33,876 nucleotides of DNA from a virus (IMGVR_UViG_2698536610_000003); one strand, 5' to 3'; counted from the stretch's first letter, positions 6,586 to 33,876 are shown. Notes: a model not told the origin generated them from the letters alone. Numbers and translations: made by a program.

Positions 6586-7869
6586 TTATTGTGGCCAGTC
6601 CCAGTTATCATATTGTTGAATTTTTTCTGATAACACTTGAGGTGCACTACCGTGAGTTACATTTTCAGCATAACCAATCGTACCGACATAGTTAATGTCA
6701 TCAACATCAAGTGTATTGGCCTCCCATGGCCGTATCTTGCGAGTTGGTTCACAGATAGAAACGTCACGATTGATGGTTTTTAACCACGATATATTTATTA
6801 CATTTGCGCCTGCAGCTTTTAGATACATTCTGGCTGTTTCATGAGCATTTCCTTCAGTGCAAAAATCATCAATAACTAATATTTTCTTACCTTTCAATTT
6901 AGGAGGGTTGGTATATCTTTCGCCGGTGATGAGGTTTTTAATAGGGGCAGGATTTAAATTAACGGTGTTTATTTGAGATGTGATGTTTACTTCTTGCTTA
7001 GCTATCCGAGCTTGCTGTGATTTAATAGCTGTTGTATGTCGTAAGAATAGATCTTTTAGATACTTTCCTTTGAATGAGACTGCTAAACCTTTTAGGTCAT
7101 GCTCCATAATGTTTGCTAGTTTATAAGGATCTTCAGCGTTATGTCCAACGTAGGTGGTTATAAAACTTGCTCCTTCACTTAAGCCAGAGAAATAAATGCT
7201 AGCACCAAGATATCTTATCCAAAAATCGGGGCTTCCAACCGATAGCTTTGCGAGGTCTCTTGCATTGGCTGAATACATTGTAAATTCAGGGACATATGTG
7301 CTAAATGGTGCTAAGGCGTAGTAGTGAACATCTTCATTAAAATGCCCTTGCCATCCCCACAACTGCTCTCTTAAGCAAAAAACATCAATAAATCTAGCGA
7401 TTTCTTTGGGTTCTGAAAATTGAAAACCGTACTCAGTAACCGGTTCATACCAGGTCGCATTAATAAATAGGGTATTCCCGTTGGTAGCTGCTTGTAAGTC
7501 TTCCTGAGAACGCCCTACATAGATCATTTCGTTTCGTTTTAATTCTAACGCAGCCATGATGAAATCTATGGCCTTCCCTGTTTGTTTTGCTGGTATGTTG
7601 TTGTCGAGTTCACGGCAAAAGTGAATTGATTCTGGGAATTTCCTTTTTAGGTATTCGTCTAGTGTTACGATCCCGTCATGTGTTCTCACGTTTCTATTTT
7701 TATTTGTCAAGAAGATAACTTTAATCCCTTTTGATGACAAAAACGCAAACAACTTACGTAATTCAGAATCGATTCTAGATTTTAGTTCCTGAGGTTGAGT
7801 GTTAGATGTTAATGGTAATACAACATCTGCGATTGAAAATATAACTGCCTTTAAATACATATTATTCAT
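6586..7869 (-). CDS. PRTase-domain protein (ComF-like) with possible HAD-like N-terminal region
   Basis: 427 aa; PRPP-binding-loop-like KILVIDDFCTEGNAHE at aa 329-344 (compare hhhhDDhhTTGgT); N-terminal 140 aa shows a HAD-like motif order (hhhh-Thr, Lys, GxxxED) but with the first Asp replaced; AT-rich; start ATG overlaps upstream gene as ATGAATAA. Confidence 0.75.
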   Translation of the reverse strand: MNNMYLKAVIFSIADVVLPLTSNTQPQELKSRIDSELRKLFAFLSSKGIKVIFLTNKNRNVRTHDGIVTLDEYLKRKFPESIHFCRELDNNIPAKQTGKAIDFIMAALELKRNEMIYVGRSQEDLQAATNGNTLFINATWYEPVTEYGFQFSEPKEIARFIDVFCLREQLWGWQGHFNEDVHYYALAPFSTYVPEFTMYSANARDLAKLSVGSPDFWIRYLGASIYFSGLSEGASFITTYVGHNAEDPYKLANIMEHDLKGLAVSFKGKYLKDLFLRHTTAIKSQQARIAKQEVNITSQINTVNLNPAPIKNLITGERYTNPPKLKGKKILVIDDFCTEGNAHETARMYLKAAGANVINISWLKTINRDVSICEPTRKIRPWEANTLDVDDINYVGTIGYAENVTHGSAPQVLSEKIQQYDNWDWPQ

Positions 7870-8911
7870 CTCCCAGAAGAGAAAGTTGCTGTGTTTTTAC
7901 ACCGGATGCTGATTTAATTAAGCTTTGCACGTCTTTAAAATCGGATAGTGGAATATTCATTATCGTAGCTGAGTACTCTGACAAGGCATGTTTAATCTCT
8001 TCTTGAGGTGTAGTTCCCCTAAGTAAAGGACAAAGTATCGCTCTTTTTAATTGAGCAGCATATCTCACAGTATGAGATGTCCCACTTTTTAGGCCCCATT
8101 CAACTGGGATCAATACATCACTTAAAGCTGCTTGAATTCTATTTCTACGAACAAAGTTTTCCTGTGATGGTTTTTGGTTTGGTAAATACTCAGTAAGAAT
8201 CAGTCCGCCATTATTTACAATATGGCCTCTCATCTCGCCACTATTTTTGGGATAATTTGAGTTTACGCCAGTACCTAACACAGCAATTGTCGGTATTTTA
8301 AATAACAGGGATGCTTCATGTGCAGATTGATCTATACCATATGCTAAACCGCTTACAGTTGAATAATCCGAATCTATAAATTGCGAGATTACTGCTTGAG
8401 TTAAATAAATTCCAAGTGCGGTTGGGTTTCTGGTGCCGACAACTCCAACACACTTTTTATCTAGCAAGGATACATTGCCTTGAGCAAACAACCAGAAAGG
8501 CGGCTCAGACAGGTCATTCAACTTGTCTGGATAGCTCGGAGAACCATAGTGGATGATTTTGTAACCACTATTATGATAATGTGTGAGTAATATTTTAGCC
8601 GTAGAAATCATGCTGTCCCGAAAAACAGACCAATTGCCTTCATTCAAATAATAAGGTTGGCGATGAAGTTTTACTCCAAGTAGATACTCAAAGTTGGCTA
8701 ATGTTTGACTGGTAACAATGTCTCTAAATCTGATTCCCTTTTGAGCAACTTTATATAGAGTCCAATAACTAACGCCATGTATTTCTGATAGTGCCAACAA
8801 AGCGGCACTTTCTGTGTTCCATCGAGCTGTTTCAATATCCGTCATAATGTTCGCCAAAATGGAAGATTTTTTATCGCTTTTATCATAGGTTTGTATAAAA
8901 GTGTAGCACAT
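7862..8911 (-). CDS. DprA/Smf-like Rossmann-fold protein
   Basis: 349 aa; core VSGLAYGIDQSAHEASL...TIAVLGTGVNSNYPKNS...FVRRNRIQAALSDVLIPVEWGLKSGTSHTVRYAAQLKRA parallels DprA Rossmann signature (SGxAxGID..AH..AL, AVLG.G....YP, RNRI.A.LS); N-terminal helical region; AT-rich. Confidence 0.8.
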   Translation of the reverse strand: MCYTFIQTYDKSDKKSSILANIMTDIETARWNTESAALLALSEIHGVSYWTLYKVAQKGIRFRDIVTSQTLANFEYLLGVKLHRQPYYLNEGNWSVFRDSMISTAKILLTHYHNSGYKIIHYGSPSYPDKLNDLSEPPFWLFAQGNVSLLDKKCVGVVGTRNPTALGIYLTQAVISQFIDSDYSTVSGLAYGIDQSAHEASLLFKIPTIAVLGTGVNSNYPKNSGEMRGHIVNNGGLILTEYLPNQKPSQENFVRRNRIQAALSDVLIPVEWGLKSGTSHTVRYAAQLKRAILCPLLRGTTPQEEIKHALSEYSATIMNIPLSDFKDVQSLIKSASGVKTQQLSLLGDE

Positions 8912-15767: not shown

Positions 15768-16049
15768 ATGACAGCAGAAGAAAAAAGCGTCCTGTCGCTT
15801 TTCATGATTGGGGTGCTGATTGTTGTCGGCAAGGTGCTTGCCGGTGGTGAACCCATCACCCCGCGTCTGTTTATCGGGCGCATGTTGCTCGGTGGTTTTG
15901 TCTCGATGGTTGCCGGTGTTGTTCTGGTGCAGTTTCCTGACCTGTCACTGCCTGCGGTGTGCGGCATCGGCTCCATGCTGGGTATCGCCGGTTATCAGGT
16001 GATTGAGATTGCCATTCAGCGCCGCTTTAAGGGCAGGGGGAAACAGTAA
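15768..16049 (+). CDS. Y: holin Y
   Basis: 93 aa with hydrophobic transmembrane segments and charged C-terminus (RRFKGRGKQ); first gene of lysis cassette. Confidence 0.9.
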   Translation: MTAEEKSVLSLFMIGVLIVVGKVLAGGEPITPRLFIGRMLLGGFVSMVAGVVLVQFPDLSLPAVCGIGSMLGIAGYQVIEIAIQRRFKGRGKQ

Positions 16050-16546
16050 TGCCGGTAATTAACACGCATCAGAATATCGCCGCCTTTCTCGACATGCTGG
16101 CCGTGTCCGAAGGGACGGCGAATCATCCGCTGACGAAAAACCGGGGCTATGACGTGATAGTCACCGGACTGGACGGAAAGCCGGAAATTTTCACCGACTA
16201 CAGTGACCACCCGTTCGCACATGGCCGACCGGCGAAGGTGTTTAACCGTCGCGGTGAAAAATCCACGGCCTCCGGTCGCTATCAGCAGCTTTACCTGTTC
16301 TGGCCGCATTACCGCAAACAGCTTGTCCTGCCGGATTTCAGTCCGTTGTCACAGGACAGACTCGCCATTCAGTTGATCCGCGAACGCGGTGCACTGGATG
16401 ACATCCGGGCGGGACGCATTGAGCGCGCCATTTCACGCTGTCGCAATATCTGGGCGTCCCTGCCGGGTGCCGGTTACGGTCAGCGTGAGCATTCACTGGA
16501 AAAACTGGTCACCGTCTGGCGTACCGCTGGCGGCGTACCGGCTTAA
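16049..16546 (+). CDS. K: endolysin K
   Basis: 165 aa soluble protein directly after the holin with ATG/TAA overlap; same size as P2 K. Confidence 0.9.
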   Translation: MPVINTHQNIAAFLDMLAVSEGTANHPLTKNRGYDVIVTGLDGKPEIFTDYSDHPFAHGRPAKVFNRRGEKSTASGRYQQLYLFWPHYRKQLVLPDFSPLSQDRLAIQLIRERGALDDIRAGRIERAISRCRNIWASLPGAGYGQREHSLEKLVTVWRTAGGVPA

Positions 16547-16560
16547 ACGGAGTAAACACC

Positions 16561-16986
16561 ATGAAGAAATTATCCCTTTCACTGATGCTGAACGTGTCGC
16601 TGGCGCTGATGCTGGCACTGTCCCTGATTTACCCGCAGAGCGTGGCCGTCAGTTTTGTCGTTGCCTGGGCGATTCTGGCGACGGTTATCTGTGTGGTTGC
16701 CGGTGGTGTCGGCGTGTATGCCACGGAGTATGTACTGGAACGCTACGGGCGGGTGCTGCCGCCGGAATCGCTGGCCGTGCAGATTGTCACGTCGCTGTTT
16801 TTGCAGCCGGTGCCGTGGCGCAGACGGGCGGCGGCTCTGGTGGTGATGGTGGCGACGTTTGTCTCGCTGATTGCTGCCGGGTGGATTTTTACCGCGCTGA
16901 TTTATCTCATGGCGTCGCTGTTCTTCCGGTTGGTACGTACGGCCTGCCGTCAGCGTTTTGAGGGGCGGGCACCATGTCAAAGCTGA
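16561..16986 (+). CDS. lysA: lysis accessory membrane protein LysA
   Basis: 141 aa, multiple hydrophobic helices; position and size match P2 LysA. Confidence 0.85.
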   Translation: MKKLSLSLMLNVSLALMLALSLIYPQSVAVSFVVAWAILATVICVVAGGVGVYATEYVLERYGRVLPPESLAVQIVTSLFLQPVPWRRRAAALVVMVATFVSLIAAGWIFTALIYLMASLFFRLVRTACRQRFEGRAPCQS

Positions 16987-17399
16987 TGATTGTGCTGGTT
17001 GTGTTGTTATCACTGGCGGTGGCCGGTCTGTTTCTGACGAAGCATGAAAACGCCAGCCTGCGCACCTCACTGGACAGGGCGAGCAACGTCGCCAGCGGGC
17101 AGCAGACGACCATCACCATGCTGAAAAATCAGCTTCATGTTGCCCTCACCAGGGCAGACAAAAACGAGCTGGCGCAGGTAGCACTGCGTCAGGAACTGGA
17201 GAACGCCGCGAAGCGTGAAGCACAGCGCGAGAAAACCATCACGAGGTTACTTAATGAAAACGAAGATTTTCGCCGCTGGTACGGCGCTGACCTGCCTGAT
17301 GCTGTGCGCCGGTTGCACCAGCGCCCGGCCTGCACTGACGCCAGTGATTGTCGCCAACGCCTGCCCGAAAGTGAGTCTTTGCCCGATGCCGGGCAGTGA
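16974..17399 (+). CDS. lysB: i-spanin (Rz-like) LysB
   Basis: 141 aa, N-terminal TM anchor then coiled-coil-like periplasmic domain; overlaps lysA. Confidence 0.85.
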   Translation: MSKLMIVLVVLLSLAVAGLFLTKHENASLRTSLDRASNVASGQQTTITMLKNQLHVALTRADKNELAQVALRQELENAAKREAQREKTITRLLNENEDFRRWYGADLPDAVRRLHQRPACTDASDCRQRLPESESLPDAGQ

Positions 17400-17544
17400 C
17401 CCGCAGACGAACGGCGATTTAAGTGCCGATATCCGGCAGCTTGAGAACGCGCTGGCACGCTGTGCCAGCCAGGTAAAAATGATTAAACACTGTCAGGACG
17501 AAACCGATGCTCAAACCCGACAGCCTGCGCAGGGCGCTGACTGA
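17254..17544 (+). CDS. lysC: o-spanin lipoprotein (Rz1-like) LysC, embedded out of frame in the 3' end of lysB
   Basis: 96 aa from ATG 17254 (track starts at GTG 17215); signal peptide with lipobox LCAGC; Cys/Pro-rich; overlaps lysB and R. Confidence 0.8.
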   Translation: MKTKIFAAGTALTCLMLCAGCTSARPALTPVIVANACPKVSLCPMPGSDPQTNGDLSADIRQLENALARCASQVKMIKHCQDETDAQTRQPAQGAD

Positions 17545-17974
17545 TGCCGTCACGGTGCTGAAAACCAGCCCCGAGATGCTGCGGATATTCGTGGATAACG
17601 GGAGTATTGCCTCCACACTGGCGACGTCGTTGTCATTCGAAAAGCGTTACACGCTCAATGTGATTGTGACCGACTTTACCGGTGATTTTGACCTGCTCAT
17701 TGTGCCGGTGCTGGCGTGGCTGCGGGAAAATCAGCCCGACATCATGACCACCGACGAAGGCCAGAAAAAGGGCTTCACGTTTTATGCAGACATCAACAAT
17801 GACAGCAGCTTTGATATCAGTATCAGCCTGATGCTGACCGAGCGCACGCTGGTCAGTGAGGTTGACGGTGCGCTGCATGTGAAGAATATCCCGGAACCTC
17901 CGCCGCCGGAGCCGGTCACCCGCCCGATGGAACTTTATATCAATGGTGAACTGGTGAGTAAGTGGGATGAATGA
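17507..17974 (+). CDS. R: tail completion protein R
   Basis: 155 aa, size and order as P2 R. Confidence 0.88.
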   Translation: MLKPDSLRRALTDAVTVLKTSPEMLRIFVDNGSIASTLATSLSFEKRYTLNVIVTDFTGDFDLLIVPVLAWLRENQPDIMTTDEGQKKGFTFYADINNDSSFDISISLMLTERTLVSEVDGALHVKNIPEPPPPEPVTRPMELYINGELVSKWDE

Positions 17975-18419: not shown

Positions 18420-18485
18420 TTGTGCCATTCCCGACACCTCATCGTCACATTGCCGCCGGTATGACCCGGCGGCATCCTTCCCGTT
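18420..18485 (+). promoter_or_regulatory. expected late promoter region for the V-W-J-I-H-G operon
   Basis: 66-bp intergenic gap before V, placed by P2 organisation; motif not confidently assigned. Confidence 0.35.
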
Positions 18486-24107: not shown

Positions 24108-25319
24108 ATGAGAGTAGAATTCACAGAAAGAACAAAGAATGTACTTGCTGGGAGAGCAGGATACCAATGTAGCCATCCTCAATGTTCAATAATAACTATT
24201 GGCCCAGGTGAAAAAGAGGATGAGACATCCAGCATCGGTGAGGCATCACATATTTATAGTGCAGCTAAAAATGGCCCCAGAGGGCAAGGTGGGCTAACAG
24301 AAGAACAGTTAAAAAGCCCTGAGAATGGAATTTGGCTATGTAAGGTACACGCAAGGTTAGTTGATACAAATAATGGAGCAGGATTTACCGCATCACAACT
24401 AATTAGTTGGAAAAAATATCATGAGGAATTCATTAAACATCACCAGGGAAGGATCGTCAATAAATTACATTGGATATCAAAACTATCAATAGTTGATAGT
24501 CCTTTATTTCAAGATTCAATAAGCATCGACTTTGCAAAAATAACAATTATTGAGAGTGATAGTAATGGCGCAGGGAAAACAGCAATATGCGAGTGGTTAT
24601 CAAGTGTCAGTGCAATAAATAGACTTGAGCGCTGGGTTAATTGTGAAAAGCTCAATATTGAAATTCATTTGCACACGCCAGAGCCACACTTAATTGAAGT
24701 GAGTGTAAATAGCGGAAGGATTTCCTATAAAGTTGATTCTCTTGACATTACCTCAAGTCCTTTTCCTTTTGCATGCTATTTTTTTGATTTTAATTACTCA
24801 AAGAAAAAATATAATAAAACATCTAACTTTTTTGCTGAGTTCATAAATATATCGCCAGTGCTACTTGAGAGTCTTTTTGATTATGTATGCAGAAACAAAA
24901 AAGGCATACTTAAATCAATCAGATTTGCTACTCAGGAAGAGCTGGAACAGGATGATGATAGTGAAGATGAAAAAGAGCGAGATATTCATGATATCTATTG
25001 CATGATACAAGGTAATGATTCTTATTTGCCTTTCGAGTGTTTATCTGGAAGTGAAAAAACTAGAGTGCTATTGGATGTTATAATCGCATCATTAAATGAG
25101 CGTTCCAAATACACACCGACACTACTTTTTATAGAAATGAATGAAACCTTTTTATCAAAGGAATCTTTTAAACCATACATTGAAAGATTGAATTCCATTG
25201 AGACTTCATTTCAAACCATCGTAACAACTCATTCGAACATATTAAATGAGTGTTCCGTAGGTTTTCCCCGTTATGAATTGATAAAAGGTATCAACACATC
25301 AACCTTGAGGAAAATATAA
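24108..25319 (+). CDS. HNH endonuclease fused to compact ABC-type (AAA_21-like) ATPase; candidate defence protein
   Basis: 403 aa. N-terminus: Zn-finger/HNH layout C21-x4-C26 ... ASHIY (H48) ... ENGIWLCKVH (N73, C78, H81) ... D86. C-terminus: Walker A-like SNGAGKT (K157), ABC signature-like LSGSEK (312-317), degenerate Walker B TLLFIEMNE (338-346), H-loop IVTTHS (H375). Strongly AT-rich. Confidence 0.75.
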   Translation: MRVEFTERTKNVLAGRAGYQCSHPQCSIITIGPGEKEDETSSIGEASHIYSAAKNGPRGQGGLTEEQLKSPENGIWLCKVHARLVDTNNGAGFTASQLISWKKYHEEFIKHHQGRIVNKLHWISKLSIVDSPLFQDSISIDFAKITIIESDSNGAGKTAICEWLSSVSAINRLERWVNCEKLNIEIHLHTPEPHLIEVSVNSGRISYKVDSLDITSSPFPFACYFFDFNYSKKKYNKTSNFFAEFINISPVLLESLFDYVCRNKKGILKSIRFATQEELEQDDDSEDEKERDIHDIYCMIQGNDSYLPFECLSGSEKTRVLLDVIIASLNERSKYTPTLLFIEMNETFLSKESFKPYIERLNSIETSFQTIVTTHSNILNECSVGFPRYELIKGINTSTLRKI

Positions 25320-32343: not shown

Positions 32344-32370
32344 AAAAAATAAGCCCGTGTAAGGGAGATT
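32344..32370. repeat. attR: attR core (aaaaaataagcccgtgtaagggagatt), identical to 477..503
   Basis: Exact direct repeat of the left core; coincides with the 3' end of cyaR. Confidence 0.9.
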
Positions 32371-32430
32371 ACACAGGCTAAGGAGGTGGTTCCTGGTACA
32401 GCTAGCATTTTATGGGTTATGTTTTTCAGC
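32344..32430 (-). ncRNA. cyaR: CyaR (RyeE) small regulatory RNA, 87 nt
   Basis: Minus-strand sequence GCUGAAAAACAUAACCCAUAAAAUGCUAGCUGUACCAGGAACCACCUCCUUAGCCUGUGUAAUCUCCCUUACACGGGCUUAUUUUUU matches CyaR as I recall it, including the CACCUCCUUA seed region; located next to yegQ as in E. coli. Confidence 0.88.
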
Positions 32431-32437
32431 GAAACGG

Positions 32438-32514: not shown

Positions 32515-33876
32515 TCACTTACCGTGGGGATTACGCGTGGTTTCCCCGGAGAAATTACGCATCAGCAGCGCGTAATTGAGCTCAAGATCCTGCGGGACCG
32601 GGAGCCACACAGTATAACCATCGCCTGGTGCTATCGGCATAGCTTCGCCTTTGGCGTTTTCCATGTGCTCAAGGGTAAAATTAATGTTGCCTTGCGGCGT
32701 CATCAGCTCAAGGCTGTCGCCAACGGAGAATTTATTTTTCACCGCTACCGCCGCGAGGTCCCCCTTGCGCTCACCGGTAAACTCACCAACAAACTGCTGG
32801 CGGTCAGAAACTGAATAACCGTATTCGTAGTTCTGATAATCGTCGTGAGTATGACGACGCAGGAAACCTTCGGTATAGCCACGATGCGCCAGACCTTCCA
32901 GAGTTTCCAGCAGGCTGGTATCGAACGGTTTTCCCGCAGCGGCGTCATCGATAGCTTTGCGGTAAACCTGTGCGGTGCGTGCACAATAGTAGAAAGATTT
33001 GGTACGACCTTCGATTTTCAGCGAATGCACGCCCATTTTGGTCAGGCGTTCTACATGGGCGATGGCGCGCAGATCTTTCGAGTTCATGATGTAAGTGCCG
33101 TGCTCATCTTCAAACGCGGTCATATACTCGCCCGGACGCTGGGCCTCTTCGATCATAAACACTTTGTCGGTTGGTGCGCCGATACCCAGCGTCGGCTCAA
33201 CATTTTGCACCGGAATCGGCTCGTACTTGTGTACGATGTTGCCAACATCATCTTCTTTCCCTTCCTGGACGTTGTACTCCCAGCGGCAGGCGTTGGTGCA
33301 GGTGCCCTGGTTCGGGTCGCGCTTGTTGATATAGCCAGAGAGCAGGCAGCGACCGGAGTAGGCCATGCACAGCGCGCCGTGAACGAAGATCTCGATCTCC
33401 ATATCCGGCACCTGATTGCGGATCTCTTCAATCTCTTCCAGCGACAGCTCGCGAGAGAGGATCACGCGGGTCAGGCCCATTTGCTGCCAGAATTTCACCG
33501 TCGCCCAGTTCACGGCGTTAGCCTGCACCGAAAGGTGGATCGGCATTTCAGGGAAGTGCTCACGCACCAGCATAATCAGCCCTGGATCGGACATAATCAG
33601 CGCATCCGGCCCCATTTCCACCACCGGTTTCAGGTCACGGATAAAGGTTTTCAGCTTGGCGTTGTGCGGTGCAATGTTGACCACGACATAAAACTTTTTC
33701 CCCAGCGCGTGGGCTTCATTGATGCCGAGCTGAAGATTTTCGTGGTTGAATTCGTTGTTGCGCACACGCAGGGAATAACGCGGCTGGCCCGCATAAACAG
33801 CATCTGCGCCATAAGCGAAAGCGTAACGCATATTTTTCAGCGTTCCCGCCGGGGAAAGGAGTTCCGGTTTAAACAT
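32515..33876 (-). CDS. yegQ: peptidase U32-family protein YegQ (host flank)
   Basis: 453-aa complete ORF (start ATG at the window edge), sequence I recognise as E. coli YegQ; convergent with ogr. Confidence 0.9.
   Translation of the reverse strand: MFKPELLSPAGTLKNMRYAFAYGADAVYAGQPRYSLRVRNNEFNHENLQLGINEAHALGKKFYVVVNIAPHNAKLKTFIRDLKPVVEMGPDALIMSDPGLIMLVREHFPEMPIHLSVQANAVNWATVKFWQQMGLTRVILSRELSLEEIEEIRNQVPDMEIEIFVHGALCMAYSGRCLLSGYINKRDPNQGTCTNACRWEYNVQEGKEDDVGNIVHKYEPIPVQNVEPTLGIGAPTDKVFMIEEAQRPGEYMTAFEDEHGTYIMNSKDLRAIAHVERLTKMGVHSLKIEGRTKSFYYCARTAQVYRKAIDDAAAGKPFDTSLLETLEGLAHRGYTEGFLRRHTHDDYQNYEYGYSVSDRQQFVGEFTGERKGDLAAVAVKNKFSVGDSLELMTPQGNINFTLEHMENAKGEAMPIAPGDGYTVWLPVPQDLELNYALLMRNFSGETTRNPHGK

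Follow-up and report, generated by a model that had tools for sequence, protein, structure and literature searches.

Among the described lysis systems, the closest counterparts of the gene considered here are the LysC proteins of phage P2 and its relatives and, at the level of function, lambda Rz1. Lambda Rz1 belongs to the same functional class: its gene, located in the lysis cassette and read in the +1 frame of the i-spanin gene, gives a small lipoprotein of the outer membrane, which likewise disrupts this membrane together with a type II inner-membrane partner (PMC6139136). The gene layouts differ, however: whereas lambda Rz1 lies wholly inside Rz, lysC passes the lysB stop codon and enters the tail gene R, and P2 is the named archetype of this “overlapped” class (Kongari et al., 2018; PMC6139136). 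The overlapped rather than embedded layout of P2-type lysC is also described by Lynch et al. (PMC3091744), who, citing Markov et al. (2004), place the lysC start in the +1 frame within lysB and the stop out of frame in R.

The stretch of DNA analysed here (33,876 nucleotides, hereafter the window) consists of a P2-like (Peduovirus) prophage flanked on both sides by short pieces of host DNA; the integrase gene is found at 583-1596 on the minus strand. The lysis genes are located on the plus strand and comprise the holin gene Y (15768-16049; PF04550, E 2.6e-42), the endolysin gene K (16049-16546) and the membrane protein gene lysA (16561-16986), with matches to PHROG lysis families, followed by lysB (16974-17399), which encodes the 141-aa partner i-spanin, and lysC (17254-17544), encoding 96 aa plus the TGA stop codon and predicted to specify an o-spanin, an Rz1-like outer-membrane lipoprotein precursor. 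This order, Y-K-lysA-lysB-lysC, is that of P2 and also matches Wphi. Taking all lines of evidence together, we consider it about 95% probable that this gene is the lysC of a Peduovirus (P2-like) prophage of E. coli and provides the o-spanin component of the LysB/LysC two-component spanin.

Read from its ATG, lysC is in the +1 frame relative to lysB and overlaps it by 146 nt (17254-17399), so that the same nucleotides code for the 3′ end of lysB in frame 0 and the 5′ end of lysC in frame +1. Next comes a lysC-only stretch of 107 nt (17400-17506, residues 50-84), and the last 38 nt of lysC (17507-17544) coincide with the first 38 nt of R (17507-17974; PF06891 P2_Phage_GpR, E 6.1e-45), which in turn is read in the +1 frame relative to lysC. 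R is the tail completion or terminator gene; it is not a spanin component and simply overlaps lysC. The original prediction that an o-spanin gene begins out of frame inside lysB and runs into R is therefore borne out, together with the open reading frame from a GTG at 17215 to 17544 that it had reported. Only its wording needs to be narrowed, as it spoke of a nested gene in an embedded or overlapped arrangement: the overlapped class applies, since lysC starts in +1 within lysB and ends beyond the lysB stop, just as in the P2 archetype (PMC6139136), while nested or embedded does not, because lysC leaves lysB and terminates 145 nt past its stop codon. The product also gives no match to an Rz1-family Pfam model, and no sequence relationship to lambda Rz1 is detectable. 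LysC would work like Rz1 but is outside both the Rz1 sequence family and the embedded class.

Two side observations concern the neighbouring genes. LysA is a 141-aa hydrophobic protein that PHROG 162 as well as RefSeq phage records label as “endolysin”; its sole match is to the NCBIfam “DNZ54_00345 family”, with none to a Pfam family, and it is regarded as a putative antiholin in the literature (PMC3091744). “Endolysin” appears to be a misnomer that has spread between records. Downstream, the window has no orf30 between S (end 18419) and V (start 18486). The gap of 18420-18485 is short as in Wphi, in contrast to P2, where the reverse-strand Orf30 sits between these two genes.

The identity of lysC is well founded in family models. 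Its product reaches 125.2 bits against the NCBIfam equivalog model NF038368 (P2_Rz1, “Rz1-like lysis system protein LysC”; cutoff 27) and 59.8 bits against Pfam PF23793 LysC (cutoff 27), and also matches phrog_456 Rz-like spanin with an E value of 3.4e-31. With P2 LysC (NP_757382) it shares 93.8% amino acid identity, in support of the earlier call of an o-spanin gene lysC. Both proteins have the same 96 aa, ATG and Shine-Dalgarno sequence, the same LCAGC motif and the same five Cys. In both phages the gene overlaps lysB by 146 nt (+1) and R by 38 nt and contains the hairpin in the part read only as lysC, with P2 lysC being annotated at the equivalent coordinates 8202-8492. The two proteins differ by six substitutions (e.g. 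K2R, A11V, R25P, L28P, A34P, T83N), none of which hits an invariant position. The comparison with P2 LysB/LysC that had been proposed as a check thus turned out in favour of the assignment, as the layout is the same and the LysB of the window, too, passes the cutoff of its family model (see below).

Further relatives follow the same pattern with increasing distance. Wphi LysC (92.7% identity) is encoded in an identical gene layout. Phage 186 Orf28 and the Eganvirus LysC proteins (SEN1, EtG and others) are 71-75% identical, with the same length and layout and with conservation of the signal peptide, the lipobox Cys and the four periplasmic Cys; by contrast, the hairpin is not conserved in these phages, their lysB is 12 nt shorter, and they are without lysA or have it elsewhere. 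The LysC proteins of the Burkholderia P2-like phages KS14 and KL3, of Fels-2 and of HP1/HP2 share only 22-37% identity, and even there the overlapped layout with lysB and R is the same and the five Cys and an N(G/D)(D/E)L motif are conserved. In total, tblastn found the lysC frame in 279 phage records, including phages of Escherichia, Salmonella, Yersinia, Klebsiella, Erwinia, Burkholderia and Pseudomonas, down to less than 40% identity, and 252 of these records cover at least 80% of it. Among bacterial genomes, two E. coli chromosomes contain the 330-nt query with 100% identity and annotate it as lysC, and close copies are carried by 1604 of the 5426 complete genomes of E. coli (~30%). This lysC is already known, and there is nothing new in the gene or its layout.

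Open reading frame length, on the other hand, contributes nothing to this assignment. In mononucleotide shuffles of the window, ~11 open reading frames reached 109 aa or more and ~20 reached 96 aa or more. Since frames of this length are expected by chance, lysC could in principle be a chance open frame in a region that holds only lysB, R and an RNA with a hairpin serving as lysis/tail attenuator. Indeed, the lysC-only stretch contains a hairpin at 17451-17469 (plus strand) with a perfect 8-bp stem, GCTGGCAC-GCT-GTGCCAGC, which corresponds to a feature of the P2 record inside lysC (8399-8417, “putative transcription attenuator; O operon”). Yet P2-type phages conserve this hairpin, whereas 186-type phages, which retain lysC, lack it. 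It also has no T-run behind it and the terminator scan does not report it, so that its reading as an intrinsic terminator is not supported. Any role of the hairpin RNA would add to the LysC protein instead of replacing it. The Rfam scan of the window gave no match in the lysis region. Given in addition the curated family matches, the frame that stays intact in 252 phage records, the five Cys that are invariant across genera and a third-position bias that tracks the lysC frame in 107 nt read by no other gene, we attach practically no probability to a chance frame. That lysC is a gene follows from the family models, the conservation of the frame and the codon-position signature, without recourse to its length.

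This signature was obtained from an ungapped comparison with P2, Wphi, pro147, 186, SEN1, EtG, RCIP0057, MHG51 and FSL SP-004. Of the 35 variable columns in the lysC-only stretch, 21 are at codon position 3 of lysC (binomial p = 0.001), and the R-only stretch displays the same signature in the R frame (87/149). As judged from these alignments, the lysC frame is under purifying selection, which is visible in the codon-position bias. An antisense open reading frame of 89 aa at 17189-17458 was also considered and is unsupported, as its third positions correspond to position 2 of the lysC codons, where variation is lowest (6/35). Where lysB and lysC are read from the same nucleotides, conservation is even stronger. 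Compared with 186-type phages, the lysB/lysC overlap has 78-81% nucleotide identity, the highest among the five regions compared, versus 53-58% in the lysB-only stretch just upstream. Likewise, the fraction of variable columns is 0.29 in this overlap, tied for the lowest value with the lysC/R overlap, and 0.53 upstream. High identity together with few variable columns is what two superimposed constraints predict. At the protein level, the C-terminus of LysB and the N-terminus of LysC within the overlap are each 71% identical to phage 186. The best-conserved part of the protein is encoded by the lysC-only stretch, where the invariant motif NGDLSADI as well as Cys70 and Cys80 are located.

Public records disagree on where translation of lysC begins. 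The longest open reading frame, as given by the ORF track, starts with GTG at 17215 and ends with TGA at 17542-17544 (109 aa); the lipid Cys would then be preceded by 33 residues, which include a long, charged extension at the N-terminus. The ATG at 17254 gives the 96-aa form used in the P2 and Wphi reference records and in SpaninDB, which reads MKTKIFAAGTALTCLMLCAG followed by CTSARP and has a 20-residue signal peptide. RefSeq PGAP instead chooses the ATG at 17299 (Met16, 81 aa) on DNA that is identical to the window (L011:1285-1530), and many LysC proteins at NCBI share this length of 81 aa and the first residues MLCAGC. Finally, the records of pro147, SEN1, EtG, RCIP0057 and MHG51 give a 52-aa form that begins at the ATG corresponding to 17386 (Met45).

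Several observations single out the ATG at 17254, as the original prediction had already proposed over the GTG. All 11 phages compared share the sequence acGAGGttact.a-ATG without change; it includes the Shine-Dalgarno motif GAGG (17243-17246), which lies 7 nt before the ATG inside lysB codons and is the one that SpaninDB gives for the P2 family (PMC6139136). The 13 in-frame codons on the GTG side (17215-17253) are not covered by the family models and are interrupted in relatives, by a TGA directly before the ATG in Wphi and EtG and by a stop 4 codons before the ATG in 186-type phages. Because of these stops the extension falls outside conserved LysC; it is most likely untranslated as part of LysC and can be regarded as a longest-ORF artefact. 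The internal starts fare no better in spite of their use in annotation: neither ATG is preceded by a Shine-Dalgarno sequence, the Met16 form would have just 5 residues and no K or R before the lipid Cys and hence no signal peptide, and the Met45 form deletes the lipobox entirely. In the Fels-2, KS14 and HP2 homologues, a full signal peptide is kept at the aligned position. A start at the GTG, at Met16 or at Met45 is therefore very unlikely. On the basis of the conserved ribosome binding site and the frame comparison, translation of lysC is assigned to the ATG at 17254, from the GAGG located inside lysB.

In the resulting precursor, the N-terminus reads MKTK-IFAAGTALTCLML-CAG/C-TS (the slash marks the predicted cleavage site), with MKTK as n-region and an h-region of ~13 residues (Kyte-Doolittle maximum 2.36). 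The predicted signal peptide comprises residues 1-20 (17254-17313) and the lipobox L-C-A-G-C residues 17-21 (17302-17316), with the codon for Cys21 at 17314-17316. The lipobox LCAGC that had been read from the sequence is thus in place and its Cys21 is invariant. None of the strict patterns applied, i.e. PS00013, the DOLOP pattern [LVI][ASTVI][GAS]C, [ILMFTV][^REKD][GAS]C and the G+LPP type, matched LysC, and they fail because position -3 is Cys and not L, V or I. For the same reason, taking the lack of a predicted lipoprotein signal as a ground for dismissal, as the original prediction had suggested, would misfire if strict patterns were used.

The assignment of the lipid Cys rests on three points. 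First, Cys21 is invariant in 49 LysC homologues, as are L15, L17 and T22, while C18, A19 and G20 are conserved in at least 90%. Second, in the alignment Cys21 coincides with the lipobox Cys of Fels-2 (LSGC), HP2 (LLAC) and KS14 (LCAC), whose lipoboxes are canonical or nearer to the canonical form, in contrast to the P2/186 group with its Cys at -3. Third, SpaninDB lists the o-spanin of the P2-family phage fiAA91-ss with a signal sequence of 20 aa, “LCAG” preceding the Cys, a mature protein of 76 aa from CTS, 4 periplasmic Cys and the class “ovl” (PMC6139136). Besides, Kongari et al. noted a number of non-consensus o-spanin lipoboxes, of which AWAC is one that has been validated experimentally (PMC6139136), and Lynch et al. 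reported LipoP SPase II sites at 20|21 in the KS14 and KL3 homologues (PMC3091744). In view of the alignment, the known non-consensus lipoboxes, the SpaninDB entry and these LipoP sites, the Cys at -3 hardly counts, in our view, as evidence against lipidation. Cys21 is accordingly the predicted lipidated N-terminus of mature LysC, which is supported by homology. The residues that follow, with the invariant T22 (Thr at +2), Ser at +3 and no Asp at +2, indicate a fit to outer-membrane sorting. The literature searched contained no lipidation or localisation experiment on P2 LysC.

An older view of the protein can be weighed at this point. The P2 record labels LysC as “non-essential; regulation of lysis”, and this annotation, along with a lipobox that is non-canonical at -3, would suit a secreted or periplasmic lysis regulator that is not a lipoprotein and is either cut by SPase I or keeps its membrane anchor. 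Such a protein would leave unexplained why the Cys after A-G is invariant and aligned with canonical lipoboxes, and why lysC is paired and overlapping with an Rz-like i-spanin gene within the lysis cassette; the spanin literature moreover equates LysB/LysC with Rz/Rz1 (PMC6139136, PMC3091744). We regard a non-lipoprotein regulator as extremely unlikely and retain the o-spanin assignment. A different question is whether the Cys at -3, which is near-invariant in the P2/186 group as L-C-[AV]-G-C, is a functional feature, for instance by slowing down Lgt/LspA processing or by providing a second near-membrane thiol, and, separately, whether the hairpin at 17451-17469 is a control element for the ratio of lysis and tail expression. 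Both ideas are speculative, with conservation as their support, and on balance improbable.

After cleavage, mature LysC would consist of 76 aa, among them 7 Pro (9%) and, counting the lipid Cys, 5 Cys. It is thus moderately rich in Pro, at a level far below the 26% of KS5 Rz1. Mature lambda Rz1 is 40 aa long, and its Pro content is also far above that of LysC. All five Cys (21, 37, 43, 70 and 80) are kept even in the homologues with 22-37% identity, and the periplasmic C37, C43, C70 and C80 show little or no variation. An AlphaFold2 model, for which 49 homologues served as input and which was read for secondary structure only, consists of an extended Pro-containing linker followed by a confident helix at residues 53-89 (pLDDT ~90), with pLDDT values of 89-95 for the block of residues 41-80. 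These properties set LysC apart from lambda Rz1, which has one periplasmic Cys (PMC6139136) as compared with four and a predicted long helix in LysC, and they agree with Lynch et al., who gave ~9.5% Pro for P2-type LysC versus 26% for the lambda-like KS5 Rz1 (PMC3091744).

The partner protein is equally well defined. LysB scores 171.7 bits against TIGR03495 (phage_LysB, “Rz-like lysis system protein LysB”; cutoff 92.75) and matches phrog_89 with an E value of 6.6e-60. It has a single N-terminal hydrophobic segment at about residues 4-22 (Kyte-Doolittle 19-residue maximum of 2.86 at residue 4), which implies the type II inner-membrane topology of an i-spanin, and a periplasmic helical domain with 2 periplasmic Cys. 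Judged by their presence, the predicted periplasmic Cys of LysC and LysB could serve intermolecular disulfides. Co-expressed P2 lysB and lysC reportedly complement lambda Rz/Rz1 null mutants, in work attributed to Markov and colleagues (2004). The Cys numbers match the SpaninDB counts for the P2 family, namely 4 periplasmic Cys for the o-spanin and 2 for the i-spanin (PMC6139136).

Based on these features, the following course of events can be proposed, in which the membrane-fusion mechanism is inferred for P2 LysB/LysC by analogy to lambda. As the sequence shows, lysB and lysC are read in two frames from one mRNA region, lysC from its own ribosome binding site within lysB. Following what is known of the family, the LysC precursor would be diacylated at Cys21, cut by SPase II and N-acylated, and the Lol system, given Thr/Ser and not Asp after the Cys, would sort it to the inner leaflet of the outer membrane. 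By comparison with lambda Rz/Rz1, mature LysC, a Pro-containing linker followed by a long helix, would bind the C-terminal end of LysB. The LysB-LysC complex would then bridge the periplasm through the peptidoglycan mesh, and homotypic disulfides may stabilise it (PMC6139136). Once Y has triggered lysis and K has cleared the peptidoglycan, the complexes would collapse and fuse both membranes, again as proposed for lambda (PMC6139136). Fusion in this manner would remove the final barrier and release the virions.

Apart from the lysis genes, our data also give some information on other loci of the prophage. Between the replication gene A and the portal gene Q, in the variable locus that corresponds to the tin/old position of P2, we found a ShosTA (Shosta) anti-phage system at 6586-8911 on the minus strand, consisting of ShosT (6586-7869; PADLOC PDLC03012, 979 bits) and ShosA (7862-8911; PDLC02997, 763 bits; Pfam DprA-like DNA_processg_A). 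The P2 Z/fun position between the tail-fibre assembly gene G and the sheath gene FI is occupied by a 403-aa open reading frame (24108-25319, plus strand) that has no Pfam match. Its first ~120 residues resemble the PADLOC PDC-M68A and HNH-type endonuclease effector models (E 3.6e-22), its C-terminal part gives faint AAA-ATPase-like matches, and it is probably an uncharacterised defence cargo gene, as far as can be told from these similarities. Just outside the prophage, on its ogr side, the gene for the CyaR/RyeE sRNA (32347-32432, minus strand; Rfam RF00112, 100.7 bits) and a host U32-family peptidase gene (32515-33876, minus strand) are located, which suggests that the prophage is integrated beside the CyaR and U32-peptidase genes of its host.

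The biological weight of this lysC is small, as P2 LysB/LysC is the textbook overlapped spanin and the copy described here, which shares 94% identity with it, is widespread in E. coli. Its value lies rather in annotation. A rigid lipobox pattern would wrongly reject the P2 LysC family. Besides, the same DNA carries at least three public starts (96, 81 and 52 aa), in addition to the 109-aa call of the longest open reading frame, and of the annotated forms only the 96-aa one has the signal peptide that is needed for function.
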